Source of the DNA: Candidatus Omnitrophota bacterium
GTDB taxonomy: Bacteria; Omnitrophota; Gorgyraeia; JAFGGP01
NCBI GenBank assembly: GCA_016930485.1
Contig: JAFGGP010000050.1
Span: 15,370 to 79,369, forward strand
DNA length: 64,000 nt
Direction: 5' to 3'
Shown one piece after another: positions 2,696 to 63,636 of the stretch (positions are counted from its first letter, which is position 1; each line of letters begins with the position of its first letter). The translations under genes were made by a program, and so were the position numbers. A model generated the notes under the pieces. The model ran no database searches. It had not been told where the DNA came from and was given only the letters and a program-made list of their open reading frames with translations.

Positions 2696-3778
2696 ATGCC
2701 GGGATTTATGAAAAGGGTATCTAAGACAGCAGGGCTTGTTCCGGGGGCACTCGTGTATGTGGGCGAGGAAAAGACAGGCAAGCCGAAGATCACGGTTATT
2801 GATTATGATGAGAAGGGGTTTCAGGAAAAAGAGATTGCCTCGGTAGAAGAATGCTTCCCGTTCAAGGAAACCCCCACGGTTACCTGGGTGAATATCGATG
2901 GCATACACGATACCGAGGTAATCGAAAAAATCGGCCGGCATTTTAACCTGCATCCGCTCACATTAGAGGATATCGTTGACACCGGCCAGCGGCCAAAGTA
3001 CGAGGATCTGGAGCAGTATATTTTTATCGTGTTAAAGATGCTGTATTGCGAAGAAGGTACCTGCGACATAACCGTTGAACAGGTAAGCATGATACTAGCC
3101 GATAATTACGTCATCTCTTTTCAGGAAAAGGAGGGCGATGTCTTTAATGTGGTCCGGGACAGGATACGAAACGCAAAGGGCAGGGTCAGAAAAATGGGCG
3201 CAGACTATCTTGCCTATTCTCTTTTAGATGCGGTGGTTGACGGTTATTTTTTGATCCTTGAGAAGATGGGGGACCGGATAGAGGATATGGAGGAGACACT
3301 GGTGAATAATCCTGACCCGGCCGTCCTCGAGACTATCTACGGGCTTAAGCAGGACACGATTTTTTTGCGTAAATCCGTATGGCCACTCAGGGAGGTGGTC
3401 AACGGGCTTACCCGCGGCGAGTCCGACCTGATCCGGAAGGAGACCCACGCCTTTTTAAGAGACGTATACGACCACACTATTCAGGTAATCGAAACGATCG
3501 AGACATTCCGCGATATGGTCTCGGGGATGCTTGATATCTATCTTTCAAGCATCAGCAATAAAATGAACGAGGTGATGAAGGTTCTTACCATCATCGCCAC
3601 TATATTTATACCACTTACCTTTATTGCCGGCATTTACGGCATGAATTTTAATCCGGAGAACTCACCTTATAATATGCCCGAACTCAACTGGCGATTCGGC
3701 TATCTGGGCGCCTGGGGGGTCATGCTGCTTGTCGCACTGGGCATGCTTATCTACTTTAAACGAAAGAAGTGGTTGTAA
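2696..3778 (+). CDS. corA: Magnesium/cobalt transporter CorA
   Basis: YGMNF (GMN) signature, two C-terminal TM helices and full-length CorA architecture. Start trimmed to the ATG at 2696, preceded by GAGGA. Confidence 0.9.
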   Translation: MPGFMKRVSKTAGLVPGALVYVGEEKTGKPKITVIDYDEKGFQEKEIASVEECFPFKETPTVTWVNIDGIHDTEVIEKIGRHFNLHPLTLEDIVDTGQRPKYEDLEQYIFIVLKMLYCEEGTCDITVEQVSMILADNYVISFQEKEGDVFNVVRDRIRNAKGRVRKMGADYLAYSLLDAVVDGYFLILEKMGDRIEDMEETLVNNPDPAVLETIYGLKQDTIFLRKSVWPLREVVNGLTRGESDLIRKETHAFLRDVYDHTIQVIETIETFRDMVSGMLDIYLSSISNKMNEVMKVLTIIATIFIPLTFIAGIYGMNFNPENSPYNMPELNWRFGYLGAWGVMLLVALGMLIYFKRKKWL

Positions 3779-8643: not shown

Positions 8644-9605
8644 TGCGGATAAGAATGAGAATATCCCACAGGAGGAAGGTGAGGCCGAAACGCCTTCGTC
8701 ATAACGATACCATCGGCATCGTGGCACCCGCCAGCTCCTTTGACCGGGAAAATTTCAAAAGGGGCGTTTCGGTATTGCGGAGGCTTGGATATAAAGTTGT
8801 CTACGAGCGTGCGATATTCAGCAAATACTGGTCAAAGCCAGGACACAACGAACAGCGCGCCCATCAGATAAACAGGATGTTTGCCGATAACAGGATAAAG
8901 GCGATACTGTGTGCCAAGGCGGGATGCGGCTCCACCGGCATTATCCCCTACCTGGATAAGGATGTCATCAGGGCACATCCGAAGATTTTTGTCGGCTACA
9001 GCGACATCACTATATTGTTGCTGTATCTGCAGGCTGCAGCGAATATGGTTGTATTCCATGGCCCGGTTGTTTCCGGTGAAATGTATGAAGACATGAATCC
9101 GGCCACCATGGATTATCTGTTGCGACTCATTACTCAACCCCATGCCCTGGGCAGGATAACGTTTCCCAGCCTGAGATACATCAAACCGGGCAGGGCGACG
9201 GGGATGTTGGTAGGTGGCAATATATCGTTAATCGTTGAGGCAATAGGGACCCCTTTTGAAATCGACACCGATAACAAAATACTTTTTTTAGAAGAAATAG
9301 GGGAGGATCTGGAAGTCATAACCGGTTATTTTGAAAGGCTTAAAAGATCAGGGGCCTTCAAAAAAATACGAGGCCTGATATTCGGCAGAATGGTCGATTG
9401 CTTTGAAGATTTAGATCCGCAGGAGGGGATTATCTCTCTGATACACAGGGAACTTGCCGATCTTGCCGTTCCGGTGCTTTTTGGCTTTCCGTCAGGACAT
9501 ACCCAGAGCAGAGAAGGACTTCATGTCACTCTCCCATTCGGCACAGAGGTGAGTATCGATTCTGATAACCTTTCATTGCTTATTGAACAGGCGGCTGTTA
9601 AATAA
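8643..9605 (+). CDS. LD-carboxypeptidase, peptidase family S66 (LdcA/MccF-like)
   Basis: IGIVAPASSF, GYSDITILL (nucleophile Ser) and FGFPSGH (catalytic His) motifs. The ATG at 8643 overlaps the upstream stop (GTGATG), implying translational coupling. Confidence 0.8.
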   Translation: MRIRMRISHRRKVRPKRLRHNDTIGIVAPASSFDRENFKRGVSVLRRLGYKVVYERAIFSKYWSKPGHNEQRAHQINRMFADNRIKAILCAKAGCGSTGIIPYLDKDVIRAHPKIFVGYSDITILLLYLQAAANMVVFHGPVVSGEMYEDMNPATMDYLLRLITQPHALGRITFPSLRYIKPGRATGMLVGGNISLIVEAIGTPFEIDTDNKILFLEEIGEDLEVITGYFERLKRSGAFKKIRGLIFGRMVDCFEDLDPQEGIISLIHRELADLAVPVLFGFPSGHTQSREGLHVTLPFGTEVSIDSDNLSLLIEQAAVK

Positions 9606-37380: not shown

Positions 37381-37423
37381 GGACACATGTCACAGGAAAA
37401 ATACTTGTGACTTGTGACCTGTC
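37381..37423. repeat. Heptamer-unit hairpin (GACACAT/GTCACAG arm, AAAAATAC loop, TGTGACT/TGTGACC arm)
   Basis: Read directly. 12 of 14 positions pair. The loop-plus-arm AAAATACTTGTGAC is shared with the element at 43916. Confidence 0.8.
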
Positions 37424-37426
37424 GTT

Positions 37427-40334: not shown

Positions 40335-40397
40335 AGCCTTCAGCCAGCAGCCTTCAGCCATCAGCCGCTGAAAGCTGACAGCTGACAGCTGAAAGCT
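40335..40397. repeat. Heptamer-unit hairpin ((NNTCAGC)x4 / (GCTGANN)x4)
   Basis: AGCCTTCAGCCAGCAGCCTTCAGCCATCAGC-C-GCTGAAAGCTGACAGCTGACAGCTGAAAGCT. The 5-nt cores pair and the 2-nt variable positions mostly do not. Confidence 0.85.
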
Positions 40398-40402
40398 AAA
40401 AA

Positions 40403-41269
40403 ATGAAAGAACTTATCGTAAAAACATGTGTACTTCGTGCCGCAGGGACGAACTGCGATAGAGAGACAGCCTATGCATTTGAACGCGCAGGCGCCCGATC
40501 GGAGATTATCCATATCAACCAGTTTGTCTCTCGCACCCGCACGCTGAACGAATTTCATATTCTGGCCATCCCGGGCGGATTTACCTATGGCGATGATGTT
40601 AGCTCAGGTAAGATACTGGCAAACGAACTGAAATATAATTTGTTTGATGATATCCGCCGCTTTGTAGAACAGGGGCGATTGATTATCGGTATCTGCAACG
40701 GCTTTCAAGTGCTGGTTAAATCGGGTCTCCTGCCGGATGTTGCCGGCGATTGTGAGATTGAGGCCTCACTTGTTTTAAATAACTCGGGCAAGTTCGAGGA
40801 CTGTTGGGTATATCTTAAACCTCCCCGGCCCATTACACGCTGTGTGTGGACGAACGGCATAGAGAGGGTTATCTATCTGCCTGTTGCGCACGGCGAAGGA
40901 AAGTTTGTGGTTAAGGGTAACACTGTACTTTCTTTACTCAAGGAGAATAACCAGATTGTATTTCGTTACTGTACCCCGGACGGCTCGCCAGGTCCGTTCC
41001 CGGTAAACCCCAACGGCTCGCTCGATGATATCGCCGGCATCTGTGACCCTACCGGCAGGATTTTAGGAATGATGCCACATCCGGAGAGGCACATTACTTT
41101 CTTTCATCATCCGCACTGGCACAGATGTTCCGAGAGAAAACAGGGTGACGGATTGAATATATTTGAGAACGGCGTTCAATATATTCAGAAGACGATACTT
41201 ACACAAGAATCAGGAGACATATCACAAGTCGCAGATAATGCAAATATCAAAAATCAAATGTCAAAATGA
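40403..41269 (+). CDS. purQ: FGAM synthase glutamine amidotransferase subunit
   Basis: GICNGFQ (Cys nucleophile) and MMPHPER motifs. The last ~15 codons run into the downstream repeat. Confidence 0.95.
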   Translation: MKELIVKTCVLRAAGTNCDRETAYAFERAGARSEIIHINQFVSRTRTLNEFHILAIPGGFTYGDDVSSGKILANELKYNLFDDIRRFVEQGRLIIGICNGFQVLVKSGLLPDVAGDCEIEASLVLNNSGKFEDCWVYLKPPRPITRCVWTNGIERVIYLPVAHGEGKFVVKGNTVLSLLKENNQIVFRYCTPDGSPGPFPVNPNGSLDDIAGICDPTGRILGMMPHPERHITFFHHPHWHRCSERKQGDGLNIFENGVQYIQKTILTQESGDISQVADNANIKNQMSK

Positions 41270-42932: not shown

Positions 42933-43915
42933 CCTATAAAAAAAGCGGTGTTGACGTAAAAAAGGCCGATCTATTTGTTCAGGGCATCCGATCGGTGATC
43001 GCCACAACTCCTCAGAGGGGCGTTCTGAGGGATGTAGGGTGTTTTGCGTCTCTCTACGATGCCGGACTTTCCCGCTACCGAAACCCCATTCTGGTCTCCT
43101 CCACGGACGGTGTCGGGACAAAAATAAAGATTGCCCGGCTGCTTAATTGTTACTCGACGATAGGCATCGACCTGGTGGCTATGAATGTGAATGATATTAT
43201 TACTGTCGGCGCACGACCCCTGTTTTTTCTGGACTATATTGCGACCGGCAGGGTGCGGCCTCGCCAGTTAACCGATATCGTCAGAGGTATCGCAGCGGGT
43301 TGCATTGAGGCGGACTGTGCCCTTTTGGGCGGGGAGACCGCCGAGATGCCCGGTATCTACCAGAAGGGAGACTTTGACCTGGCCGGTTTTTGTGTCGGGG
43401 TATGCGAAAAAAGACAGCTGCTTTCCCCGGAAAAGATGCGCCCCGGTGACCGGATTATCGGCGTTGCATCGAGCGGTGTTCACTCAAACGGCTTTTCGCT
43501 GGTGCGCAGGATATTCAGCGAGGGCTCACTCCGGAAGGATAAACACCTGGCAAAAGAACTGCTGACGCCGACACGCATTTATGTAAAATGTGTAGAGCGG
43601 GTTATGGCGCAATGCAGACTGCATGCTGTTATTCATGTTACCGGAGGCGGTTTCCACAGGAGGATTGTCACGTTCTTAAACCGTGTGCTTGGAAAAAGGG
43701 GGCGTGCCGAGGTGGATGTCAAGGCATGGCCGGCTCCCGAGATTTTTCGGGTCATCCAGAAGAAGGGTGGCATATCGACCCGTGAGATGTTTCATACGTT
43801 TAATATGGGGGTCGGGCTGGTTCTTGTCTGTGCCAGACAGGATACAGATAGGGCCCTGAACGCAGTGCAACAAAGCGGTTTTGATGCGTGGGTAATCGGG
43901 CGGATAACTAAATAG
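42917..43915 (+). CDS. purM: AIR synthetase
   Basis: LTYKKSGVD, DGVGTK, DMLAxNxND-like MNVNDIIT and GGETAEMPG motifs. 16-nt overlap with purF. Confidence 0.95.
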   Translation: MAVKLTYKKSGVDVKKADLFVQGIRSVIATTPQRGVLRDVGCFASLYDAGLSRYRNPILVSSTDGVGTKIKIARLLNCYSTIGIDLVAMNVNDIITVGARPLFFLDYIATGRVRPRQLTDIVRGIAAGCIEADCALLGGETAEMPGIYQKGDFDLAGFCVGVCEKRQLLSPEKMRPGDRIIGVASSGVHSNGFSLVRRIFSEGSLRKDKHLAKELLTPTRIYVKCVERVMAQCRLHAVIHVTGGGFHRRIVTFLNRVLGKRGRAEVDVKAWPAPEIFRVIQKKGGISTREMFHTFNMGVGLVLVCARQDTDRALNAVQQSGFDAWVIGRITK

Positions 43916-43980
43916 ACACAGGACACATGACACAAGACACAGGTAAAATACTTGTGACCTGTGACATGTGACCGGTGACT
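43916..43980. repeat. Heptamer-unit hairpin ((GACACAN)x4, TAAAATAC loop, (TGTGACN)x4)
   Basis: Begins at the base after the purM stop codon. Same family as 37381 and the intragenic array at 58274. Confidence 0.85.
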
Positions 43981-43993
43981 CGAAAAGATTATT

Positions 43994-45286
43994 ATGAAGA
44001 AAAAAGTACTGGTTATCGGTTCAGGCGGCAGGGAACACGCCCTGGTATGGAAGCTCTCGCAGAGTCATCGCGTCGGAAAGATATATGCAGTTCCGGGAAA
44101 CGGCGGGATGAGAGAGATGGCAGAGACTATCCCTATAGATGTCGGCGATCTTGAACAAATAGCTGTTTTTGCCAAGGAAAAAGGGATCGACTTAACTATT
44201 GTTGGCCCTGAGGCACCGCTTGTCAGTGGTATAGTTAACCTATTCAATGAAAATGGGTTACGAATATTCGGTCCGACAAAAGAGGCAGCACAATTAGAGG
44301 GGAGCAAGGTTTTTACCAAGCGGCTTCTTAAGGAGGCGGGTATCCCAACGGCCGACTTTCAGGTATGTGAGAATAGCAACGAGGCAAAGGCCTTTATTAA
44401 GGACAAAGGGGCCCCGTTAGTCATTAAGGCGGACGGTCTGTGTGCCGGCAAGGGTGTTATCGTAGCCCTCTCAGAGGAGGAGGCGCTTGCCGCGGTCGAT
44501 TCTATTATGATCGACCGGAAATTTGGCGCCAGCGGTTCGCAGATTTTGATTGAAGAACTTCTCACGGGGGAAGAGGCCTCTATTATTGCCTTTGTCGACG
44601 GCAGTGATTTTTTGCTGCTTCCCTCCTCCCAGGATCATAAGAGGGTCGGCGATAATGATACAGGGGCGAATACCGGCGGCATGGGGGCGTATTCACCGGC
44701 CCCGGTTATCACCGGGGAGCTTTTGAAAGAGATAGAAGAGACGGTAATCGCCCCGACTATCGCGGCGATGGGCAGGAAAGGCATGCTGTTTAACGGGGTG
44801 CTCTATTGCGGACTTATGATTACCCGAAGAGGTCCTCAGGTGTTGGAGTATAATGTGCGGTTCGGAGACCCGGAGGTTCAGGCGATACTGCCGCGTCTTA
44901 CAGGAGATCTTATGGAGTATCTTGAGGCAACCGTTGACGGTACCCTGGCGCAGCAAACCGTTACCGTTGACCAAAGAGATTGTGTGTGCGTCGTTCTCGC
45001 CTCGGGCGGTTATCCGGAGAATTATGAAAAGGGAAAGGTAATTACCGGGCTTGAGAAAATAAGGAACCGGGAGGATGTTATTGTATTTCATGCGGGCACC
45101 AGACAGGGGACGGACACCCTTCTGACAAACGGGGGCAGGGTGTTAAATGTGGTCGCCCTTGGTGACGGGATAGAGCAGGCTATCGATACCGCCTACGCCG
45201 CTATCAGGGATATCCGTTTTGAGGGGATGTATTACAGGAGCGATATAGGATTCCGGGCATTACAAAGAAATAATCTAAAACCCTAA
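43994..45286 (+). CDS. purD: GAR synthetase
   Basis: MKKKVLVIGSGGREHAL, GANTGGMGAY and EYNVRFGDPE motifs. Confidence 0.95.
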   Translation: MKKKVLVIGSGGREHALVWKLSQSHRVGKIYAVPGNGGMREMAETIPIDVGDLEQIAVFAKEKGIDLTIVGPEAPLVSGIVNLFNENGLRIFGPTKEAAQLEGSKVFTKRLLKEAGIPTADFQVCENSNEAKAFIKDKGAPLVIKADGLCAGKGVIVALSEEEALAAVDSIMIDRKFGASGSQILIEELLTGEEASIIAFVDGSDFLLLPSSQDHKRVGDNDTGANTGGMGAYSPAPVITGELLKEIEETVIAPTIAAMGRKGMLFNGVLYCGLMITRRGPQVLEYNVRFGDPEVQAILPRLTGDLMEYLEATVDGTLAQQTVTVDQRDCVCVVLASGGYPENYEKGKVITGLEKIRNREDVIVFHAGTRQGTDTLLTNGGRVLNVVALGDGIEQAIDTAYAAIRDIRFEGMYYRSDIGFRALQRNNLKP

Positions 45287-45436
45287 ACTCTAAATCCGAA
45301 ATCCTAAATAAATCCAAAATTCAAATGACCAAAACCCAAAACAAAAAATGATAAGGAAGTTTTGAACATTTTGATTTTGAGTTTTGAGCTTATTTAGAAT
45401 TTAGAGTTTTGGATTTTAGGATTTATTTAATAAGAA
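45265..45436. repeat. Large heptamer-unit hairpin (CTAAA(T/C)N / AAATCCN arm versus NGATTT / TTTAG arm)
   Basis: Arms of about 70 nt flank the loop AAAAAATGATAAGGAA. The left arm begins within the last purD codons. Confidence 0.8.
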
Positions 45437-47515: not shown

Positions 47516-47974
47516 ATGAAAATCGCTATCGGATCAGATCACAGAGGCTACCCGTTAAAACAGGAATTGATCGCTTTTCTGAAGGAAAAAGGCCATGAGG
47601 TAACAGATCTCGGAACCGATAGCACCGACAGTTGCGATTATCCACTCTACAGTTTCGCAGTGGCGCGCGCAGTGAGCAATGGGGCGGCCGAGTGCGGCAT
47701 TGTCGTGTGCAATACAGGGATTGGTGTCTCTATGGTTGCGAACAAGATTAGAGGGGTGCGTGCGGCACTGTGTTATGAGACAGCCGCCGCCTCTACCGCC
47801 AGGCGGCACAACAATGCCAACGTTCTGGCGCTGGGGGCGGGCTACCTTACCGCTCGGACGGCCAAGGAGATAACACAGGCGTTTTTAACCGGGCAATTTG
47901 AAGGCGGAAGGCACAAGAGACGCGTTGATCAGATAAGCGATATAGAAAATCAGACAGAAGACAATAGACTATAG
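47516..47974 (+). CDS. rpiB: Ribose-5-phosphate isomerase B
   Basis: MKIAIGSDHRGY, VCNTGIGVSMVANK and RRHNNANVLALG motifs. Confidence 0.93.
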   Translation: MKIAIGSDHRGYPLKQELIAFLKEKGHEVTDLGTDSTDSCDYPLYSFAVARAVSNGAAECGIVVCNTGIGVSMVANKIRGVRAALCYETAAASTARRHNNANVLALGAGYLTARTAKEITQAFLTGQFEGGRHKRRVDQISDIENQTEDNRL

Positions 47975-48300
47975 ACCAAGAGTTAAAAAGGGCACCAGTG
48001 ACTTTCAATGACAGATGACAAATTTCCCTGCTAAAGAGCTGGCAGGCAAATGACAAATGAATCGTTTAATGACAAATCCCAAAAAAAGAAATAAAAAGAT
48101 TTTTTGATTTATTTACCCGTCTCGCCACACTGTGTGGCGAGATATCGCCTTTGGCGGAAAAGCTGAGCGCTGAGAGCTAAAAGCTTAAAAAATACATAGT
48201 TCGCGAGTTCGCGGGTTGAAAGTAGTTAACAAAGCGAGTTCTTGGGTTTTTTGAACTCGAAGAACCCGTGAACCCAAATAACCCGAGGAACCAGTAAAAG
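47975..48300. repeat. Composite repeat region mixing AATGACA, GCTGAG and GAGTTC/GAACTC heptamer arrays plus a CTCGCCACA/TGTGGCGAG hairpin
   Basis: Read directly. Shares unit families with 40335, 47149 and 49588. Confidence 0.75.
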
Positions 48301-49587: not shown

Positions 49588-49815
49588 CCACTTCGCAATG
49601 GTAGATGTCAAATCTCAAATGACAAATGAATCACTCAAATCTAAATGACAAACACGTCTGTCATCCCGTGCTGCGACACGGGATGACAGAGAAATGTAGC
49701 CCCCATTTTGATGTGGGGGAAAATGGATTCCGGAGCAAATCCGGAATGACTCGGATTCTATTTGGATTTTAAAGATTCATTTGGGTTTTGACATTTTGAT
49801 TTTGGAATTTGAATA
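49588..49815. repeat. Multi-branch composite element: outer AAATGAC/GTCATTT-type arms enclosing three internal hairpins
   Basis: Internal hairpins are CTGTCATCCCGTG-CTGCGA-CACGGGATGACAG (13 bp perfect), CCCCCAT...ATGTGGGGG and ATTCCGG-AGCAAAT-CCGGAAT. The outer arms are TCAAATGACAAATGAATCACTCAAATCTAAATGACAAA and TTTGGATTTTAAAGATTCATTTGGGTTTTGACATTTTGATTTTGG. Confidence 0.8.
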
Positions 49816-49825
49816 AGGAGCTCCT

Positions 49826-50314
49826 ATGTTGTGTCCCTACTGCGGTCATGCGGAAGATAAGGTGGTGGATTCGCGATCGAGCGATAATAACCGGGCGATC
49901 AGACGGCGCCGCGAGTGCCTGAGGTGTGGTAAACGCTTTACCACCTACGAGCATATTGAGGACATGGGGCTTTTGGTAATAAAAAGTGACGGCCGCCGGG
50001 AGGCGTTTGACCGCGGCAAAATGCTCTCCGGTCTGGTCAAGGCATGCAATAAGAGGCCCGTGGGCATGGAGGTACTTGAGTCAATAGTAGATGATATCGA
50101 GAGGATACTTCATAAAACATTCGACAAAGAGGTAAGTTCCAACGAAATCGGTGAACTGGTTATGTCACATCTGCAACAGCTGGATGAGGTGGCGTATGTC
50201 AGGTTTGCGTCGGTCTACCGGCAATTTAAAGACATCAACCAGTTTGTTTCTGAACTGAGAGAGCTGCTGGATAAGCCTGCAAAGGGCGCGAAGAAAAAAA
50301 GCGGAATACATTAA
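49826..50314 (+). CDS. nrdR: Transcriptional repressor NrdR
   Basis: CPYCGH...[17 protein letters not shown] zinc ribbon plus an ATP-cone domain. Confidence 0.95.
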
Positions 50315-52184: not shown

Positions 52185-53651
52185 ATGTCAATAGCCGCAG
52201 CAAAAAAACACCGCTTTTTCGCAGGCACCCTCCTGCTTTTTATACTCTTTTTGTCTCTACGTCTCTATCAGCTGGGATCCCGGGATTTGTGGTATGATGA
52301 GGTTATAAGCTTCTACTACGCACAACAACCCATGGTGAGCGGGAATGCCCCTTTGTATTACGGTATCCTGCATTACTGGCTGAAGATAGCCCCTTTTTCC
52401 GAGTTTGTCCTGCGTTTTCCCTCGGCAATCTCCAGTTTTATGTCCGTCATCCTCGTTTTTCTTCTGGGCAAGGAGCTTTTCGGAAAAAAAACCGCGCTTT
52501 TTGCCTCGCTTTTAATGGGGCTTTCTCCGTTCCAGATATGGTATGCCCAGGAGGCCCGCACCTACAGCATGATGTTATTTTTTGGGGCGCTTTCATTATA
52601 TCTCTTTCATCGTGCATTACGTTACAGGCGCGCGACACTCTGGTGGGGCTTTATGGCAGCGAGCCTCCTGGGGATCTACACCAATTACTTTTTCTTCGTC
52701 CTTTTCTTTGTTCAGGTAACGTATACTCTTATCTTTTTCAAAAAAGTGCGGTTAAAACTGCGGGAGATAATCCCTTTTCTCTGTGTCGGGGCGCTTTTTC
52801 TGCCGTATCTGGGCCCTTTTTTACAAAAATTCTTTACCATAAGGAATGGTTTCTGGATACCGCGCCCCTCTCTTTATTCACTGTGGGTTACCATAGAGAA
52901 CATTATTCTCGGATATAATGCCCATCGCGAGGTGTATGCACTAACCAGTTTGTTAGTTACGATTCTTTTTGTCGCGACGATGCTCACATTGCAAGACAAA
53001 GAGTTGCGGCCCCGGATTATATTTTGTCTGTATTTCTTTCTGGCCCCCGTTCTCTTTTCCTTTTTGTTCTCCCGTCTTTTCTTTTCGGTGTACATAGACC
53101 GGGCCCTGATTATTGTCACGCCGGCGCTCTACCTCCTTATCGGTCTGGGGATCGCCGCTATGTGGGAGAAGGCCATTATCGTCATGTGCACCATCCTGTG
53201 TTACGGTCTGCTTGCGTATTACACCGGTGAGATGCCCATGCCGGTTGGGCACCATATCGGGACCTATGTGAAGCGGCCCATACGGCCGATAGTGGCGTTT
53301 ATCAGGGATAACAGGGGTGGGGACGATATATGCGGGTTTACCAACTACGGGCTACAGCTCCCTTTTGTTTTTTATGAGACGGACAAGACAATGGAGACTT
53401 ACTATTTTTTCGATCCCCGAATTTTAGATACCACTTGGAAGCAGCCCTTTGGGGAGGGGCGATTGTGCGTACCCATGCATAAAATAGAGACCTTGCCTTT
53501 TAAGAGATTATGGCTTGTTGCCTCGAACTGGAATAGAGATGGGGGGTTATGCGAGAATTCCCGATCGGTTAAAGAGTGGTTGGACAACCACTTTACCTTG
53601 CAGCTATGCAAGAAGTTACATGGGTCCTGGGTATTTGCGTATGAGCGCTGA
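52185..53651 (+). CDS. Glycosyltransferase family 39 (ArnT/PMT-like) membrane protein
   Basis: About 488 aa polytopic protein. A first-loop DE motif (LWYDEVISFYYA) and the WYAQEARTYS segment are typical of GT-C/GT39 enzymes. Confidence 0.75.
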   Translation: MSIAAAKKHRFFAGTLLLFILFLSLRLYQLGSRDLWYDEVISFYYAQQPMVSGNAPLYYGILHYWLKIAPFSEFVLRFPSAISSFMSVILVFLLGKELFGKKTALFASLLMGLSPFQIWYAQEARTYSMMLFFGALSLYLFHRALRYRRATLWWGFMAASLLGIYTNYFFFVLFFVQVTYTLIFFKKVRLKLREIIPFLCVGALFLPYLGPFLQKFFTIRNGFWIPRPSLYSLWVTIENIILGYNAHREVYALTSLLVTILFVATMLTLQDKELRPRIIFCLYFFLAPVLFSFLFSRLFFSVYIDRALIIVTPALYLLIGLGIAAMWEKAIIVMCTILCYGLLAYYTGEMPMPVGHHIGTYVKRPIRPIVAFIRDNRGGDDICGFTNYGLQLPFVFYETDKTMETYYFFDPRILDTTWKQPFGEGRLCVPMHKIETLPFKRLWLVASNWNRDGGLCENSRSVKEWLDNHFTLQLCKKLHGSWVFAYER

Positions 53652-54813
53652 AGAACGGATAGTGAGACATATACTGGGGTGGGTTACGGGGCGTACCGAA
53701 CCGGGCGAGACGCCGGATTTCAATGCCTCTTCCGTCGATTGGGGATACCTCGGCGATTTACTCGCTCATCACGAGCTTCTTGCCTTTGCCTATGAGGCAT
53801 TTAAAGAATATGGCCTTACCGCTCCGGGGGCGATGCAGGAAAAATTAAAAAACACATATTACTGCACGCTGCTGCGTAACGAGCGTCTTATGGATGAGCT
53901 CGTCAGGATCACGCGCCGGTTTCGGGAAGCAGGTATACGCGTGGCCGCCCTCAAAGGGGTGGCCTTTCTCCCTGATATCTACACGAGTCTTCCCGTCCGG
54001 TCGATGACCGATATCGATATCCTGATCCAGGACGCGGATTACCAGAAAGCGGCAGGCCTTTTATGCGAGATGGGGTATTACAAGGATTTCTGGGGGCTGA
54101 CCGAGGAGTACTGGCGGACAAAGCAGTGTCACGTGGCCTTTTACAAAAAAGATCACAACAGGCTTTCAGGGTTTGTCGAACTGCACTGGGCACTTGATGT
54201 AAAAAGAGGGGGTGAGACGATTCTCCCGCGTCTGTGGGAAAGAACGCGGGAGATATATGCAAATAACGGTCCGGCGCTGCAGACCCTTTCACCCGAGGAC
54301 GCGCTTTTGCACATCGCCCTTCACCAGCGAAGGTTCGGGAAGATGCTGTGCCTGAAGTATGCCGTGGATCTCTCTTTACTCATTCAGAAATATAAAGATA
54401 CGTTTGATTGGGGGTATGTGCTTGAAGAGGCGAAAAGCGGGAAGATGCGAACCTCGCTCTATTTTCTTTTATCGCAGGCAGCGATGTTTCTTGAAGTCCG
54501 TCTTCCTCCTTCTGTAGAAGAGGGGCTTGGGGTGTCTGGGCGGAAGAAGAGACGCATCCATCATTTTATCAGAACAAGCGCCTGGCTTCCGTACGAAAAA
54601 AGAGACACGCGGAAATTATATCTGAAAGGGCATTTTCTTCTCTATGACCACCCTGCCGAACCCCTCACCGCTATTTTAAACATCCCCAGGGAACAGTTTG
54701 CCAAGTATTACTGTCTTACGCCGTATGCCAGGAAGACCGGTTTTTTCTATCACACCCGTTTTGCGTACATACCGTTTAGAACGCTGTGCGATCTTATACC
54801 GAAGAGGCGCTGA
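53641..54813 (+). CDS. Uncharacterised nucleotidyltransferase family protein (PF14907-like)
   Basis: AALKGVAFLPDIY...RSMTDIDILIQ motif. The ATG at 53641 overlaps the GT39 stop by 11 nt. The longer track ORF (53515) was rejected. Confidence 0.7.
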   Translation: MSAEERIVRHILGWVTGRTEPGETPDFNASSVDWGYLGDLLAHHELLAFAYEAFKEYGLTAPGAMQEKLKNTYYCTLLRNERLMDELVRITRRFREAGIRVAALKGVAFLPDIYTSLPVRSMTDIDILIQDADYQKAAGLLCEMGYYKDFWGLTEEYWRTKQCHVAFYKKDHNRLSGFVELHWALDVKRGGETILPRLWERTREIYANNGPALQTLSPEDALLHIALHQRRFGKMLCLKYAVDLSLLIQKYKDTFDWGYVLEEAKSGKMRTSLYFLLSQAAMFLEVRLPPSVEEGLGVSGRKKRRIHHFIRTSAWLPYEKRDTRKLYLKGHFLLYDHPAEPLTAILNIPREQFAKYYCLTPYARKTGFFYHTRFAYIPFRTLCDLIPKRR

Positions 54814-55268
54814 TGCAGACAGAGCAGCCAGAGAAAAAGGCCGTATCATTCTATGAAGCCTCTGGTTTCAGTATGTGGCCTTTTTTGAAAAAGGGAGAGC
54901 GCATCATCATCAGGGAGACGCCGCCGGATGAACTGAAAAAGGGCGACGCGATACTCTACCAGAGAGACGGGGCGGTCGTATGCCACAGGGTTATTAAAAA
55001 ATACTGCGGGGGAGAGGGTATTATTTTTTTTACCAGAGGGGACAATTCGTTCGCCGCTCCGGAGCGAGTTTTGGCGTCCGAGGTGCTCGGTAAGGCCATT
55101 GCCGTAAAAAAGGGGAAGAAGATAACGTCTCTGACTTCAGGAAAAAACCGGCTTATAGGACTCTGTATTATCGCAACCGCCCCGTTTCGTGTACGGCTTA
55201 TACGCATCCTGGGGCCGGTCTACCGGCGCTTCAAGAGATTCGCAGGGGGTCTGCGTACTTTCGTTTGA
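54813..55268 (+). CDS. S26/S24-type signal-peptidase-like serine peptidase
   Basis: SGFSMWPFLKKGERIII (Ser nucleophile context GxSMxPxL) and GDAILYQRDGAVVCHRVI. ATGA-type overlap with the upstream stop. Confidence 0.65.
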   Translation: MQTEQPEKKAVSFYEASGFSMWPFLKKGERIIIRETPPDELKKGDAILYQRDGAVVCHRVIKKYCGGEGIIFFTRGDNSFAAPERVLASEVLGKAIAVKKGKKITSLTSGKNRLIGLCIIATAPFRVRLIRILGPVYRRFKRFAGGLRTFV

Positions 55269-55341: not shown

Positions 55342-55674
55342 ATGAAAGACTCTACCGTATTTGATAAAAATCCCGATATCGTAAGCCGGACTATAGAAGA
55401 TGAAACTATCCTTCTGCCGGTTTACAGAACCTCGGAGGAAATTAACTGTCTTTATACCCTGAATGAATCGGCGGCGGCTGTCTGGGATTTAATCGACGGC
55501 AGGCGGTCATTGGGGGAGATTAAAGAGGCAATGCTCAGGCAATTTGAAGCGACGCCCGAAGAGATAGATAAGGAGATGGGAATTCTCTTGAAAGATTTAA
55601 CCGAGATCAAGGCCATTACCCCGGTCAAAGAAACAAAGGGCGCAGGGCGCGCGGGGCGGGCCACTCATACATGA
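55342..55674 (+). CDS. PqqD family protein (RiPP recognition element-like)
   Basis: 110 aa with the typical PqqD pattern DIVSRTIEDETILL...LNESAAAVWDLIDGRRSLGEI...EIDKEMGILLKDL. SD GGGAGG lies before the ATG at 55342. Confidence 0.8.
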   Translation: MKDSTVFDKNPDIVSRTIEDETILLPVYRTSEEINCLYTLNESAAAVWDLIDGRRSLGEIKEAMLRQFEATPEEIDKEMGILLKDLTEIKAITPVKETKGAGRAGRATHT

Positions 55675-56855
55675 AACACATAGAAACAGCCCATTTCTAC
55701 AGCAGGCTATACGATAAAGAAGAGCAGCGCCCCTATTCCGGGCAGCTCGAACTCACCTACCGCTGCGATCTCGACTGCATTCATTGTTACTGCAAGGGCT
55801 CGGAAGAGGTACCAAGTCACAGGTCACAGGTCGCAGATCACAGGTCGAAATTAACAGAGGAAACTTTTCCGAAAAAAAAAGAACTAACTACCATTCAATG
55901 GAAAAGGATTTTAGACGAAGTCCAAAAAGAAGGATGCCTCTGCCTTACCCTGACCGGCGGAGAGCCCTTGATCAGGGATGACTTTCTTGAGATCTACGGT
56001 TACGCGAAAAGGCTCGGTTTTATCATTACCATTTTTACCAACGGCCAGTCATTGACGAATGAGATTATTGACTATCTGGAAAAATACCCGCCCTTTTCGA
56101 TAGAAATTACCCTTAACGGCATTACAAAAAATACCTACGAATCGATTACCCGGGTTGACGGTTCCTTTGAAAGGGTGATGGAAAATATCCGTGCCCTCCG
56201 CGCGAGGAGATTGCCTCTTATTATAAAGGCGAACTGCCTGAAACAAAACAGACACGAGATCGCAAAAATAAAACAATGGGCAGAAGATTTACTGGGAAAA
56301 TCAGCTAAAATGACTGAGATGTGTGACGTGCGACCTGAGACATGTGACATTAGAAAGTATAATTTTAAATACGACCCCATGATTTTCCCCCGACTCAATG
56401 GAGACAGGGCCCCGTGCGAGCACCGACTTTCTTTTGAGGAGTTGACACAGCTCCGCCGGCAGGACCCGGATATCTGGGGAGAGTATCGGGAAGGATGCGA
56501 GGCCGGGCTGCCGGATTTGACACGGGAGGCGCGGTTTCTCTACCGTTGTAACGCCTGGATGAAACATTTTTTTATTAATCCTTACGGCAGGCTGAAGTTC
56601 TGTCAGTTTAGTGAGAAATTCAGCGTTGATTTAAGGGAGACGTCGTTTCACGAGGGCTTTTACCGGGCTTTTCCGAAACTCCTAACCCCAACATTTACGA
56701 CAGATTCGCGCTGCCAGCATTGCTCGCTTCGCCCCCTATGCTACCATTGCCCGGCGCGCGCATATCTCGAGACAGGAAACGAGGAGGCGCCGGTACCGTA
56801 TTACTGTGAATTGGCAAAACATATAGCAGATCAAATAAAATTGCTAAATTGTTAA
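55671..56855 (+). CDS. Radical SAM/SPASM-type peptide maturase (paralog 1)
   Basis: CDLDCIHCY (CX3CX2C), LTGGEPL and a C-terminal Cys cluster CQHCSLRPLCYHCPARAY. ATGA overlap with pqqD. Carries two heptamer-array insertions. Confidence 0.85.
   Translation: MKHIETAHFYSRLYDKEEQRPYSGQLELTYRCDLDCIHCYCKGSEEVPSHRSQVADHRSKLTEETFPKKKELTTIQWKRILDEVQKEGCLCLTLTGGEPLIRDDFLEIYGYAKRLGFIITIFTNGQSLTNEIIDYLEKYPPFSIEITLNGITKNTYESITRVDGSFERVMENIRALRARRLPLIIKANCLKQNRHEIAKIKQWAEDLLGKSAKMTEMCDVRPETCDIRKYNFKYDPMIFPRLNGDRAPCEHRLSFEELTQLRRQDPDIWGEYREGCEAGLPDLTREARFLYRCNAWMKHFFINPYGRLKFCQFSEKFSVDLRETSFHEGFYRAFPKLLTPTFTTDSRCQHCSLRPLCYHCPARAYLETGNEEAPVPYYCELAKHIADQIKLLNC
55816..55850. repeat. Intragenic heptamer array (GTCACAG-like x5), in frame in radical SAM 1
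   Basis: GTCACAG GTCACAG GTCGCAG ATCACAG GTCGAAA encodes SHRSQVADHRS. The segment is absent from the paralog at 57418. Confidence 0.85.
56324..56358. repeat. Intragenic heptamer array (CTGTGAC-like x5), inverted copy of 55816..55850
   Basis: CTGAGAT GTGTGAC GTGCGAC CTGAGAC ATGTGAC encodes part of TEMCDVRPETCD. Its reverse complement matches 26 of 35 positions of the first array. Confidence 0.8.
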
Positions 56856-56965
56856 ACTGATGCGTTGTTACATTGATAAACCGCTAAACTGTTTTATTGT
56901 TAAATTGTTTCATTGCTTAATTGTTGCGCTGATGCATTGTTAAATTGCTACAGCATTGAGAGAGT
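56856..56965. repeat. Heptamer-unit array (AATTGTT-like), left arm flanking the four-helix-bundle ORF
   Basis: TGTTAAACTG...TTGTTAAATTGTTTCATTGCTTAATTGTTGCGCTGATGCATTGTTAAATTGC. Confidence 0.75.
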
Positions 56966-56968
56966 AAG

Positions 56969-57344
56969 ATGAAAAAATATTTAGAGTTAAACGATATAGA
57001 TGCTTACCGAATTGCTTTGGATTTGTCTAATTATATTTGGAACATTGTTATCAAATGGGATTATTTTGCCAAAGATACCGTCGGCAAACAGTGGGCCAAA
57101 GCTATTGATTCTATCTCGGCTAATATTGCCGAAGGTTTTGACAGGTATTTTAAAAAAGATAAAGTTACTTTTTATCGTTACAGTTATGGTTCTATTAATG
57201 AATCTTTAGATTGGCTTGAAAAGGCAAATAGACGAACCTTGTTAAAAAAACAATGAATATCAACATATACTGAAGGAATTAAAAAAATTGCCAAAAGAAA
57301 TTCATGCATTAATTAATTTTACTAATGAACGCCTCAAAAAGTAA
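56969..57344 (+). pseudogene. Four-helix-bundle protein (23S rRNA intervening-sequence protein family), apparent +1 frameshift in an A7 run
   Basis: The N-terminal 95 aa (LDLSNYIWNIV...ISANIAEGFDRY...FYRYSYGSINESLDWLEKA) match the family. Frame 0 stops at 57254-57256. The expected C-terminus (NEYQHILKELKKLPKEIHALINFTNERLKK) continues in the +1 frame at 57252..57344. The A7 run is at 57244-57250. Confidence 0.6.
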
Positions 57345-57417
57345 CAGTTTAACAATTTGTCAGTGAAGCAGTTAGGAATTAAACGATACAACAATGGAGC
57401 AGGGCAGCAATTGAACA
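57345..57417. repeat. Heptamer-unit array (AACAATT-like), right arm complementary to 56856..56965
   Basis: CAGTTTAACAATTTGTCAG...CAGCAATTGAACAATGG, ending at the radical SAM 2 start codon. Confidence 0.7.
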
Positions 57418-58614
57418 ATGGAATATAAAGATTACGACCAATTTTGGCAAAAGATACATCAGTCCGCACGGGAAAAAGGTGTGCCGCTGCGTGTAATGTT
57501 TGAACTGACCTACCGGTGCAATTTTAACTGTGCTCACTGTTATATACCGACTGATTTTCGAACAAAGGGTGAGCTGACTACGCAAGAGGTGTTTTCCGTG
57601 CTTGATCAGCTCAAGGCGGCCGGGTGCTTTTATCTGGGGTTTACCGGCGGTGAGCCGTTCATGCGCGCTGACTTCATGGATATCCTCTGGTATGCTAAGC
57701 GCGCCGGGTTTCAGGTGATTATCTATACCAACGGATCGTTGATCGATGAGAAGAAAGCCGCGGCATTGGCGAAGTTCAGCCCGAATAAAGTGGACATTAC
57801 CATACCCGCCTTGAGCAAAGAGGCCTTTGAGCGCATTACCGGGGTAACAGGCTATTGGGACAGGGTATTTCATGCAATTGACCTGCTGCATAGCCTCGGT
57901 GTTCCTCTGGGGTTTAAGACATGCCTTTTGAGGGAAAACGAGTTGGAGATTGCTCAGATACAGGAATTTGCCGCCTCTTTAGGGTCGCTGTATCGTCTGG
58001 ATACAATGCTTTCCCCGCGGCTGGATGGGGATCCAGAACCGTACTGTTATAGGGGTACATTACATTTAGCCAAAAGTCATGGAATGCCAGCTATAAGTAA
58101 TAGAATGACAAATTTCAAATGCCAAATGACAAATGAATTCCAAATGTCAAATGACAAATTAAAAGACAAAAATATTTTATTTACATGTGGCGCGGGAAGG
58201 ACGCAGGCCGCTGTCACGCCGCTTGGTGAACTGAAGCTATGTGTGATAATCGACCGGCCGAAAATTACAATAGACACAGGACACATGACACAGGACACAA
58301 GAGAAAACTTACAAATAACACGTAACACGTCGCACGTCACACGTAATAAAAATGAGGGGGTGTCGCTGAGTGAAGCATGGGAGAAGTTAAAAGAGACAAC
58401 AGAGAATATAGAAGCGGGTAAAAAGCATCAGTGCCCGGAATGCGAGCTTGCACCGTATTGCAAGTGGTGTCCGGCGCAGAGCTGGCTGGCACATGGGACG
58501 TTTACAGGATGCGTTCCGGAAAGCCGTGCCTGGGCACAGATGGTGCAAGAGTCGCTTTGCAGTGACAGAGAAAAAATGCTCAAGGGGTATCAGTCTAAGG
58601 CAGGTATCATATAA
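57418..58614 (+). CDS. Radical SAM/SPASM-type peptide maturase (paralog 2)
   Basis: CNFNCAHCY, FTGGEPF and a C-terminal CPECELAPYCKWCPAQSW cluster. Carries two heptamer-array insertions. Confidence 0.85.
   Translation: MEYKDYDQFWQKIHQSAREKGVPLRVMFELTYRCNFNCAHCYIPTDFRTKGELTTQEVFSVLDQLKAAGCFYLGFTGGEPFMRADFMDILWYAKRAGFQVIIYTNGSLIDEKKAAALAKFSPNKVDITIPALSKEAFERITGVTGYWDRVFHAIDLLHSLGVPLGFKTCLLRENELEIAQIQEFAASLGSLYRLDTMLSPRLDGDPEPYCYRGTLHLAKSHGMPAISNRMTNFKCQMTNEFQMSNDKLKDKNILFTCGAGRTQAAVTPLGELKLCVIIDRPKITIDTGHMTQDTRENLQITRNTSHVTRNKNEGVSLSEAWEKLKETTENIEAGKKHQCPECELAPYCKWCPAQSWLAHGTFTGCVPESRAWAQMVQESLCSDREKMLKGYQSKAGII
58104..58170. repeat. Intragenic heptamer array (AATGACA-like), in frame in radical SAM 2
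   Basis: AATGACA AATTTCA AATGCCA AATGACA AATGAAT... encodes NRMTNFKCQMTNEFQMSNDKLKD. Same unit as the intergenic arrays at 47990 and 49600. Confidence 0.85.
58274..58345. repeat. Intragenic heptamer arrays ((GACACAN)x4 then (NACACGT)x4), in frame in radical SAM 2
   Basis: Encodes DTGHMTQDTRENLQITRNTSHVTRN. The first half nearly duplicates the left arm at 43916, and the second resembles the left arm at 63489. Confidence 0.85.
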
Positions 58615-58648: not shown

Positions 58649-59656
58649 ATGGCAAACATGAAAAAGACATACGGCGTAACGTTTAAGATAGCGGATGTCA
58701 TCGTTAAAATAAAAAGCCGTTTTCCCATGGCCCCGCCCGGTGATAACGCGCAGGGCCACGAAATTAACAGTATGTTTTTACCCTTTGTCTACACCGGAGA
58801 CCGTAAACCGCACATAGCCATCGATGTCGAGGTGGCCAGGAACCTTCCGGATATACCGCCAGGGGCAAAGGAGCTCTTTCACGCGAATCACCAGGGAGAG
58901 GGTGCGAGTTGGAGGCTGTTTCAAAACAGCAAGGGCTTCATATACCGGGGTTCTGGAGTTACAAGAGAGCAGATAGCAACTATCAATCCCCGGTTTACCC
59001 GGATAGAGTGCACTCTGTTGGCCAGGGATTGCACGCATTGCCCCGGAGAGGCGACCAGAAAGGTCATACAGGAAAATAACGGCATGGTATGGTTTTTGTT
59101 TGACGTTGCCTATGATTTTCTGCAGATACTGCTTTTGCAGTATCTTTCCCGGGGGGGTCGGGCAATCATGCCCCACGCGGCCGGGATTCGGGATGCCACC
59201 GGCGACGGGTTTCTCTTTGCCGGAAAGTCAGGGAGCGGTAAGACCACAACAGCCAAACTGTGGGCCAGATACACAAAGGCAACTGTACTCAACGACGACA
59301 GGGTCATTATTAAACAGCGCGGGAAAAGATTTTTTATATACCCCTCACCATGGAGCGGGCAGTTTCAGAATTCTCCGTGGACGCCCCTTTGTGCGGCACC
59401 GCTCAAAAATATATACTTTATTCATCACGCACCTGAAAATATCTTGACCGGGCTTTCTGAAAAGGAGGCGTTTACTCTTTTGTGGCAAGTGATGTTTCCA
59501 CCTTTTTGGGATAGGGGGGCGTTAGAACACACTCTCTCTTTCTGTCACAGGCTGAGCAGGGATGTTGCCTGCCACCGGCTTGGCTTTATCAATAACAGGG
59601 CTATTATCGATTTTGTGCGTACAGCGAATACACAAACCATGAATGAACTATACTAA
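58649..59656 (+). CDS. HPr kinase-related (HprK C-terminal domain-like) P-loop protein
   Basis: 335 aa. Walker A FAGKSGSGKTTTA is followed by VLNDDRVII, resembling the HprK-like kinases of peptide natural-product clusters. Confidence 0.6.
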   Translation: MANMKKTYGVTFKIADVIVKIKSRFPMAPPGDNAQGHEINSMFLPFVYTGDRKPHIAIDVEVARNLPDIPPGAKELFHANHQGEGASWRLFQNSKGFIYRGSGVTREQIATINPRFTRIECTLLARDCTHCPGEATRKVIQENNGMVWFLFDVAYDFLQILLLQYLSRGGRAIMPHAAGIRDATGDGFLFAGKSGSGKTTTAKLWARYTKATVLNDDRVIIKQRGKRFFIYPSPWSGQFQNSPWTPLCAAPLKNIYFIHHAPENILTGLSEKEAFTLLWQVMFPPFWDRGALEHTLSFCHRLSRDVACHRLGFINNRAIIDFVRTANTQTMNELY

Positions 59657-63488: not shown

Positions 63489-63636
63489 GTCACACGTAGC
63501 ACGTTGCAGGTAACACGTCGCACGTAACGCAGGAAAGGCACAATCAGTTTCCGCGGGACGTGATACTTGTTATGTTTACTTGATGCGGATAATATAGAAC
63601 CTGATACCTGCTACGTGATACTTGATAAAATGAAAC
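63489..63636. repeat. Heptamer-unit imperfect hairpin (CACGTAN arm / NTACGTG-GATAC arm)
   Basis: TCACACGTAGCACGTTGCAGGTAACACGTCGCACGTAACGCAGG ... GACGTGATACTTG...CTACGTGATACTTGAT. Confidence 0.65.

Follow-up and report, generated by a model that had tools for sequence, protein, structure and literature searches.

Phase-variable contingency loci, such as those of Haemophilus and Neisseria, carry long perfect repeat tracts that lie towards the 5′ end of the gene, typically one for surface structures or for restriction-modification. A different kind of tandem repeat, comprising the short tandemly repeated repetitive (STRR) sequences of the cyanobacteria Calothrix and Nostoc and the GGGAATC repeats of Xanthomonas, is classed in PMC4692102 (and in Mrazek et al. 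2007 as cited there) as heptanucleotide long simple sequence repeats (SSRs). The heptameric SSRs of Xanthomonas and Nostoc are over-represented, consist of heterogeneous units, form convergent inverted pairs and vary between related genomes, with a link to polymerase slippage having been proposed (PMC4692102). Rickettsia palindromic elements (RPEs) are discrete elements of ~150 bp, conserved over their full length, that place a conserved encoded peptide in many unrelated target genes (PMC10969869). Here, we compare with these systems the gene rSAM1 (positions 55671-56855, forward strand; an open reading frame (ORF) of 394 aa), which lies in a 64,000-nt stretch, hereafter the window, of contig JAFGGP010000050.1 from a Candidatus Omnitrophota bacterium (assembly GCA_016930485.1) and encodes a radical S-adenosylmethionine (SAM)/SPASM-like maturase of the type that modifies ribosomally synthesised and post-translationally modified peptides (RiPPs). 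rSAM1 hosts two segments of 7-nt repeats, and we consider both to be, probably, in-frame heptanucleotide SSR arrays (STRR-like long SSRs of a G(T/A)CACAN family) that occupy two insertion-tolerant, disordered loops of this peptide maturase.

The core of array 1 spans positions 55816-55850 on the forward strand, where the initial annotation of the window had placed it, and reads GTCACAG GTCACAG GTCGCAG ATCACAG GTCGAAA. Tandem Repeats Finder (TRF) returned a period of 7, 4.4 copies and 83% matches at 55816-55846. Array 2, detected by a lag-7 scan and by a register test, spans 56314-56348 and holds GTCACAN-family units on the reverse strand (forward strand: CTGAGAT GTGTGAC GTGCGAC CTGAGAC ATGTGAC; reverse complement: GTCACAT GTCTCAG GTCGCAC GTCACAC ATCTCAG). 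The two arrays are inverted repeats flanking a segment of 463 nt (not 473 nt, as annotated) and are complementary at 26 of 35 positions. The same 26 of 35 had been reported before, albeit at coordinates to which it does not apply: the annotated second array, at 56324-56358, sits 10 nt too high, and only 5 of the 35 positions are complementary there. Both peptides quoted in that annotation are present in the translation of the rSAM1 ORF. Across the window, the 14-mer GTCACAGGTCACAG (≤2 mismatches) occurs nine times as compared to 0.19 occurrences expected, and lag-7 arrays number 17 versus 0-3 for the other lags between 4 and 12, with none in shuffled sequences. Head-to-tail 7-nt units, an excess of period 7 and, between relatives, copy-number change by whole units (see below) are features of SSRs, and all three are found here.

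Both arrays are embedded in segments that most orthologs lack. Insert 1 (55809-55871, forward strand; 63 nt, 21 codons, VPSHRSQVADHRSKLTEETFP) faces a gap in the codon alignment with its ortholog on L031, a contig of P0002, and comprises seven recognisable GTCACAG-like units (55809-55857) followed by a non-repeat tail of about 14-21 nt. Insert 2 (56310-56351, forward strand; 42 nt, 14 codons, MTEMCDVRPETCDI) is additional to a loop that usually measures 7 aa. Of 120 aligned orthologs (55-62% identical), 88 had a site-1 loop (after CX3CX2C...KGSE) of ≤4 aa, as opposed to 25 aa in rSAM1, and the remaining 32 had longer, highly variable loops; the site-2 loop (LLGK to FKYD) was 21 aa long in rSAM1 and 6-8 aa long in 116 of the 120. 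The initial annotation had described each array as an insertion relative to the paralog rSAM2 and had suggested an ortholog comparison as a check. Indeed, both segments are insertions in the alignment of rSAM1 with rSAM2, and the orthologs, most of which are short at either site, agree (+21 and +14 aa). A rule by which the site-1 loop would equal a baseline plus 7k aa fits the window inserts (+21/+14) but was discarded, since loops of 5-52 aa across the 120 orthologs form no 7-aa series.

Structural modelling points to the same two places. An AlphaFold2 model of rSAM1 (mean predicted local distance difference test score (pLDDT), 77.6; predicted template modelling score (pTM), 0.81) fell below a pLDDT of 50 only at residues 40-68, 212-229 and 339-341, with the radical-SAM core scoring 85-98. 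The two long low-scoring segments, 40-68 and 212-229, are the two inserts, so that the structural check proposed in the annotation places them in loops modelled as disordered. Site 1 lies just past the CX3CX2C cluster loop and site 2 where the radical-SAM core meets the C-terminal domain. The solved folds nearest to the model are the RiPP maturases SkfB, PqqE and SuiB, with which rSAM1 shares a radical SAM core with a CX3CX2C motif ahead of a C-terminal domain rich in Cys and, as a further likeness to these top structural matches, an adjoining gene for a PqqD-like protein. In contrast, the stretch from the cluster motif to helix 1 counts ~9 residues in the solved enzymes and 30 in rSAM1, and rSAM1 carries 14 additional residues at the core/C-terminal junction. 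The HMMER alignment of rSAM1 with SkfB (6efn) splits precisely at site 1.

Comparison with relatives showed the two arrays to have separate histories. L031, the closest relative (63% aa and 67% nt identity in rSAM1), shares with the window the gene order rSAM1, four-helix-bundle gene, rSAM2. Its site 1 is exactly empty, one 63-nt (21-codon) gap matching 55809-55871, while site 2 has the same total length as in the window and reads AATGTAA (CCTGCGA)x4 CATAAAA, encoding NVTCDLRPATCDI as opposed to the window's MTEMCDVRPETCDI. The L031 array is thus homogenised, as compared to the heterogeneous array 2 of the window. The presence of an orthologous site-2 array shows that array 2 predates the split from the L031 lineage, and the empty site 1 next to a retained array 2 shows that array 1 was gained or lost independently. 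L001 (61% identical), on the other hand, carries (ACACGTC)x4.7 at site 1, of the same unit family and in the same orientation, and no site-2 array. With array 2 only in L031 and array 1 only in L001, the inverted pair is not a conserved feature. Given that the perfect tracts of L031 and L001 reside inside genes that are ~35-40% diverged, the arrays are evidently being renewed all the time.

Many orthologs likewise have heptamer arrays at site 1, built of units that are akin but not identical: GTCACAC in L001, GAGGNCA in L002 and AAGTCGT/AAGTCAG x10 in L032. L003 likewise carries a site-1 array, and the repeat peptide VVSRKSE x3 occupies the site in P0046. In a neighbour-joining tree of the 120 orthologs, which is star-like and poorly resolved, site-1 inserts are scattered, and gains and losses are not countable from it. 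The closest view of a change comes from L002 and L020 (85.6% nt identity), whose sole indel inside the gene is one of 14 nt, i.e. two units, at site 1. By this loss of exactly two heptamer units relative to L002 (521-580), the L020 ortholog (2995-3040) is frameshifted; the downstream frame is intact, with a ratio of nonsynonymous to synonymous substitution rates (dN/dS) of 0.079 over 300 codons. With a ratio this low, the shift must have arisen recently, be reversible or stem from a mis-assembly of the tract. It may accordingly represent a real off-state, a recent pseudogene or a consensus error in the repeat of this metagenome-assembled genome (MAG).

How a 7-nt repeat can be read through follows from its arithmetic. 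Translation passes through a heptamer array in each of the three phases, so that a stop trinucleotide anywhere in the circular unit comes up once per 21 nt. GTCACAG, the orientation of array 1, contains no stop in any frame. Its complement does: a perfect (CTGTGAC)n encodes L*PVTCD, with one stop per 21 nt. In array 2, the NTGTGAC consensus would give an in-frame TGA within the unit GTGCGAC, where a T-to-C change has produced a CGA codon for Arg (56331-56333, forward strand), and the phase-0 unit alone carries such a stop-removing change. L031 has Arg at the matching position, the stop-free CTGCGAC variant filling its entire array. Stops have likewise been removed from three arrays of rSAM2 (in AATGACA, TGA to TGC; in CAAATGA, TGA to TTA; in GTAACAC, TAA to TCG). 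Overall, stop trinucleotides persist in nine out-of-frame units and are absent from all in-frame units, a pattern that is not an independent statistical test because an open ORF demands it. What the pattern does show is that the repeat unit exists at the level of DNA and came under the coding constraint afterwards. Array 2 further contains a higher-order repeat of 21 nt, CTGAGAT GTGTGAC GTGCGAC followed by CTGAGAC ATGTGAC ATTAGAA, which is the product that in-frame expansion would be expected to leave.

The repeat family extends well beyond rSAM1. G(T/A)CACAN units are common to the rSAM1 arrays, two intergenic hairpins, an intergenic array at 63489-63528 (forward strand; GTCACAC GTAGCAC GTTGCAG GTAACAC GTCGCAC GTAACGC) and two arrays of rSAM2. 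One hairpin, between purC and purL (37381-37425), reads GACACAT GTCACAG - GAAAAATAC - TTGTGAC TTGTGAC CTGTC; the other, between a purM-like gene and purD (43911-43982), consists of (GACACAN)x4 - GTAAAATAC - (NTGTGAC)x4. The kinship of the rSAM1 units to these two hairpins, already pointed out in the annotation, is borne out by unit comparison, the second hairpin starting at 43911 and not at 43916. Within rSAM2, region A holds ~8 units of an (AATGACA) family (58104-58164, forward strand), which also occurs between genes at ~48000-48080 and 49602-49655, and region B holds units of the rSAM1-array family (58267-58348, forward strand; (GACACAG)x4, then (GTAACAC/GTCGCAC/GTCACAC)x5). Thus, G(T/A)CACAN and AAATGAC, two families of the window, are each found in both intergenic and coding arrays. 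Heptamer arrays are also carried by an rSAM3, a PqqD extension and other ORFs of gene cassettes of the kind to which rSAM1 belongs; none was found in the ~50 non-cassette genes of the window, where all other arrays are intergenic.

In nearly every genome, rSAM2 orthologs have heptamer arrays in the same two regions, each genome with its own unit. Region A surrounds a conserved Cys between PYxYRG and LFKCGxG, and the optional region B precedes SLKxAWE. In the orthologs from L003 to L030, one Cys of region A (xDC/xEC) is always kept amid otherwise unalignable repeat-encoded sequence. This Cys is presumably a ligand of an auxiliary Fe-S cluster, which would mean that repeat turnover takes place directly beside a functional residue.

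A lag scan over 230 kb from 30 other Omnitrophota loci returned 46 arrays at lag 7 and 26 at lag 8, the second over-represented period, as compared to ≤5 at lags 5, 6 and 9-12. Units were shared (≤1 mismatch) in 14.1% of non-adjacent array pairs within genomes versus 5.0% of pairs between genomes (permutation p<0.0005). Exchange between arrays is one of three readings of this sharing; the others are a genome-specific expansion bias and local seeding, the conserved GGN TCA GAA G of site 1 resembling GTCAGAA-type units. The within-/between-genome comparison replaced a single-linkage clustering of consensus units, which was uninformative in that it joined 45 of 53 arrays in one cluster. Uninformative as to origin, too, was a metagenome scan for (GTCACAN)x4, as the unit is not lineage-specific: 80 contigs among the matches listed ranged from 36 to 73% GC, few having inverted partners, and for many arrays among the matches listed, a position 'in ORFs' is a trivial outcome of the unit being stop-free. 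Scanning the window in full against Rfam returned no family.

These properties are reminiscent of the STRR and Xanthomonas repeats in several respects. In both cases, tandem heterogeneous 7-nt units are over-represented relative to other unit sizes, lie mostly between genes, often in pairs of convergent, inverted arrays with the capacity to fold into stem-loops, and differ in length and sequence between related genomes at the same position. Unlike them, the Omnitrophota arrays have other unit sequences, with several unit families per genome, and also occur in frame inside genes, at homologous loops across many species. STRR1-3 reportedly have the units CCCCAGT, TTGGTCA and CAACAGT (attributed to Mazel et al. 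1990), and none of these is among the window's units G(T/A)CACAN, AAATGAC, AGCCTTC and AAATCCT. Heptameric long SSRs are thus a kind already known, and no account of their occurrence in Omnitrophota turned up in the searchable literature, nor anything relevant on heptamer or tandem repeats in this phylum.

As relatives show, the arrays grow, shrink and homogenise by 7-nt steps, which is what replication slippage or unequal exchange would give. Judged from the sequence, a coding array persists only where its overall length leaves the frame intact and every unit with a would-be in-frame stop has mutated (TGA to CGA or TGT); the two arrays have separate histories, again as shown by the relatives. 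On this reading, their complementarity would be a by-product of opposite-orientation membership in one family, intergenic and coding arrays of the genome would trade units or seed one another, and the extra peptides would be tolerated passengers. Several points weigh against this picture. The window arrays are degenerate, and with at most two identical adjacent units in rSAM1, present-day slippage in this genome is not demonstrated. The unit families shared by intergenic and coding arrays could reflect copying from elsewhere instead of local expansion. The low pLDDT at the inserts is partly due to the columns there having no aligned homologs, and the missing +7-aa (21-nt) series at site 1 suggests that other indels and decay also shape the loops. 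Transposition or copying of a discrete intergenic repeat into the coding sequence, where it was kept in frame as a mobile element akin to RPEs or to an intragenic miniature inverted-repeat transposable element (MITE), would account for the unit family common to the intergenic hairpins, for units being shared more within than between genomes and for presence or absence differing among orthologs. As with such elements, repeat-derived DNA adds a peptide segment to a conserved enzyme whose ORF stays open, and the rSAM1 segments are in frame, present in some orthologs only and located in a tolerant part of the fold. However, RPEs are unlike a variable number of 7-nt units with no conserved ends and nothing shared beyond the unit, and within the window the arrays affect cassette genes only, sparing the ~50 others. 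BLAST of the inserts against the 64-kb window yielded no full-length copies but ≤28-nt pure heptamer matches; the non-repeat tail of insert 1 is unique within the window, element length varies, and no target-site duplication marks the empty site of L031. Each insert is an array of one orientation, lacking a palindrome or terminal inverted repeats, changes involve single 7-nt units (L002/L020), and a Pfam scan of ~55 window ORFs detected no transposase or recombinase. The 5′ flank of array 2, CTAAAATGAC, is weakly like the hairpin loop GTAAAATAC; import of 'loop + right arm' to site 2 was rejected since this similarity is too weak. We therefore regard a mobile element as unlikely. Of the annotation's proposal, that an intergenic repeat family had entered a coding sequence with the ORF remaining open, the core is retained, given repeat-derived insertions, shared units and most orthologs lacking them, and the analogy to RPEs is not, in view of there being neither a discrete element nor full-length copies.

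The arrangement as an inverted pair raises the question of a function for the pair itself, either as a long-range mRNA stem regulating translation or decay (e.g. as an RNase III substrate) or as inverted sites flipping the 463-nt core (an intragenic inverton), both of which had been entertained in the annotation. In silico, the duplex of arrays 1 and 2 reaches -43.3 kcal/mol as compared to -15.1 ± 3.5 kcal/mol for shuffles, array 1 finds no better partner inside the mRNA than array 2, and the minimum free energy (MFE) fold of naked RNA from 55780 to 56380 pairs the two with 26 bp. Array 1, however, pairs equally well (-43.8 kcal/mol) with an unrelated intergenic arm, the right arm of a purine-operon hairpin at 43949-43982, which argues that complementarity follows from family membership. 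Neither version finds comparative support, as L031 and L001 have one array each; moreover, inversion of the core would break the ORF (minus-strand ORFs there reach ≤88 aa), and no invertase was found in the window by the Pfam scan. A functional pair is hence very improbable. The chance of an assembly artefact or a mis-called gene is close to nil: short repeats are error-prone in metagenome assemblies and the adjoining four-helix-bundle gene is frameshifted in an A7 run, but the independent assembly L031 has a site-2 array of identical length, L001, L002, L003 and L032 have site-1 arrays, and the rSAM1 ORF is open with all catalytic cysteines conserved. More substance attaches to a contingency switch, in which gain or loss of 1-2 units would turn the maturase off or on and the arrays would be retained as the switch of a peptide-modification cassette. 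As in contingency loci, the unit size shifts the frame on gain or loss of one unit, 7 not being a multiple of 3. Relative to L002, a difference of exactly two units puts L020 out of frame, yet the ~300 codons downstream are under strong purifying selection (dN/dS 0.079); long perfect tracts, a trait of contingency loci, exist in L001 and L031; and in many genomes, the same loops of rSAM1, rSAM2 and rSAM3 bear arrays. The case for a phase-variation role is drawn from the L020 frameshift and the perfect tracts of relatives. Against it, the window arrays contain no long perfect tract and, being short and imperfect, should slip at lower rates; they are internal and read through as loops, and lie in loops of several paralogs and not in a 5′ switch region; and the frameshift of L020, the one on/off variant seen, lies between species and not within a population, and may have come from a faulty assembly or consensus of the repeat. 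We judge a switch to be quite doubtful. Scarcely more probable is that heptamer arrays are kept, and not just tolerated, at a few loop positions (rSAM1 sites 1 and 2, rSAM2 regions A and B, rSAM3, PqqD extensions) as evolvability modules, unit turnover diversifying loops near Fe-S clusters and 7-nt steps switching maturases on and off reversibly. This would provide a nanobacterial, host-dependent phylum with a contingency system acting on a RiPP-like pathway.

As in-frame SSRs, the arrays illustrate a route by which a non-triplet simple repeat enters a protein: only certain array lengths keep the frame, every third unit is edited against the stop, and stop-free unit variants can sweep the array. 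Heptamer (and octamer) arrays pervade the genomes of uncultured Omnitrophota, adding a phylum to a phenomenon for which cyanobacteria and Xanthomonas have been the main examples. In practical terms, heptamer tracts are likely to give rise, in MAGs, to frameshifted assemblies and to genes mistaken for pseudogenes, and array-derived loops are best masked when these radical-SAM maturases are aligned or modelled. Should the arrays be switches after all, they would add a new regulatory layer to peptide-modification cassettes.

With respect to the host gene, the rSAM1 product is 100% identical to the NCBI entry 'MAG: radical SAM protein' of Candidatus Omnitrophica bacterium and matches the Pfam family Radical_SAM (PF04055, E=2.9e-23). 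The cysteines of its CX3CX2C motif (C32, C36, C39) are conserved across 42 orthologs with few or no exceptions. The C-terminal cysteines C348, C351, C357 and C360 are invariant, with the spacing CX2CX5CX2C as compared to CX2CX5CX3C in the SPASM motif; the Pfam search returned no SPASM match at E<0.001, and homologs of rSAM1 carry 'SPASM domain' naming at the Joint Genome Institute (JGI). The surrounding cassette comprises genes for an NTP_transf_5 protein (53515-54813), an S24/S26-type peptidase (54786-55268) and the PqqD-like protein (55342-55674) upstream of rSAM1, followed by the gene for a four-helix-bundle '23S rRNA IVS (intervening sequence) protein' (56969-57256), rSAM2 (57418-58614, forward strand; 27% identical to rSAM1 and itself carrying the in-frame arrays described above) and a gene for an HprK/ScmC-like protein (58649-59656). 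This layout resembles SynChlorMet-type peptide-modification cassettes with multiple radical SAM genes.

Elsewhere in the window, the spacers of the purine operon (purC, purL, purQ, purF, purM, purD, purE) each contain a hairpin of two inverted heptamer arrays with a unit of its own (37381-37425, 40335-40408, 43911-43982 and 45277-45419). The arms typically mismatch once per heptamer (GACACAN versus NTGTGAC, giving an A.A every 7 nt), and the loop G(T/A)AAAATAC is common to two of the hairpins. Such structures are predicted and may serve as processing, terminator or stabiliser sites. Longer composite intergenic elements occupy 47940-48200 and 49590-49830, where 150-200 nt with further GC-rich hairpins (e.g. 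GTCTGTCATCCCGTG...CACGGGATGACAGAG; CCCCCATTTTGATGTGGGGG) lie between arrays of the AAATGAC family and the inverted partners of these arrays, without a match in Rfam. Furthermore, the window (63489-63628) and L003 (8190-8261) have arrays of two unit families in the same order, (CACGTAA/GTCGCAC) before (ACCTGAT), ~70 nt apart in the former and adjoining in the latter, which hints at a conserved composite repeat.

Inverted octamer arrays lie on either side of the four-helix-bundle gene (PF05635/TIGR02436) that separates rSAM1 from rSAM2 (56838-56925 and 57343-57420), the upstream one being (AAATTGTT)n and the downstream one (AACAATTT)n. Octamers of this family lie at cassette gene boundaries in several other Omnitrophota, including L031 (1150-1187, 1549-1579), L003 (5128-5173, 5539-5570), L006 and L001 (5108-5164). 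Together, the octamer arrays and the gene between them have an IVS-like layout, in which a repeat stem encloses a small ORF. In the window, the gene is broken at an A7 run (57243-57256): the ORF ends at 95 aa, with the family-typical C-terminus NNEYQHILKELKKLPKEIHALINFTNERLKK in another frame, reflecting a frameshift, a sequencing error or slippage. Its L031 ortholog is intact (124 aa, 77% identical) and more conserved than the flanking rSAM1 (63%). Finally, an insertion unrelated in sequence to the heptamer arrays was observed in L032, where a gene for a Y1 (IS200/IS605-type, PF01797) transposase of 153 aa sits inside an rSAM2-like cassette gene (8655-9363), with an N-terminal coding remnant of the latter upstream and the hairpins CCCGGGCTTCAGCCCGAGG and CCTCGGGCTTTAGCCCGAGG flanking the transposase.

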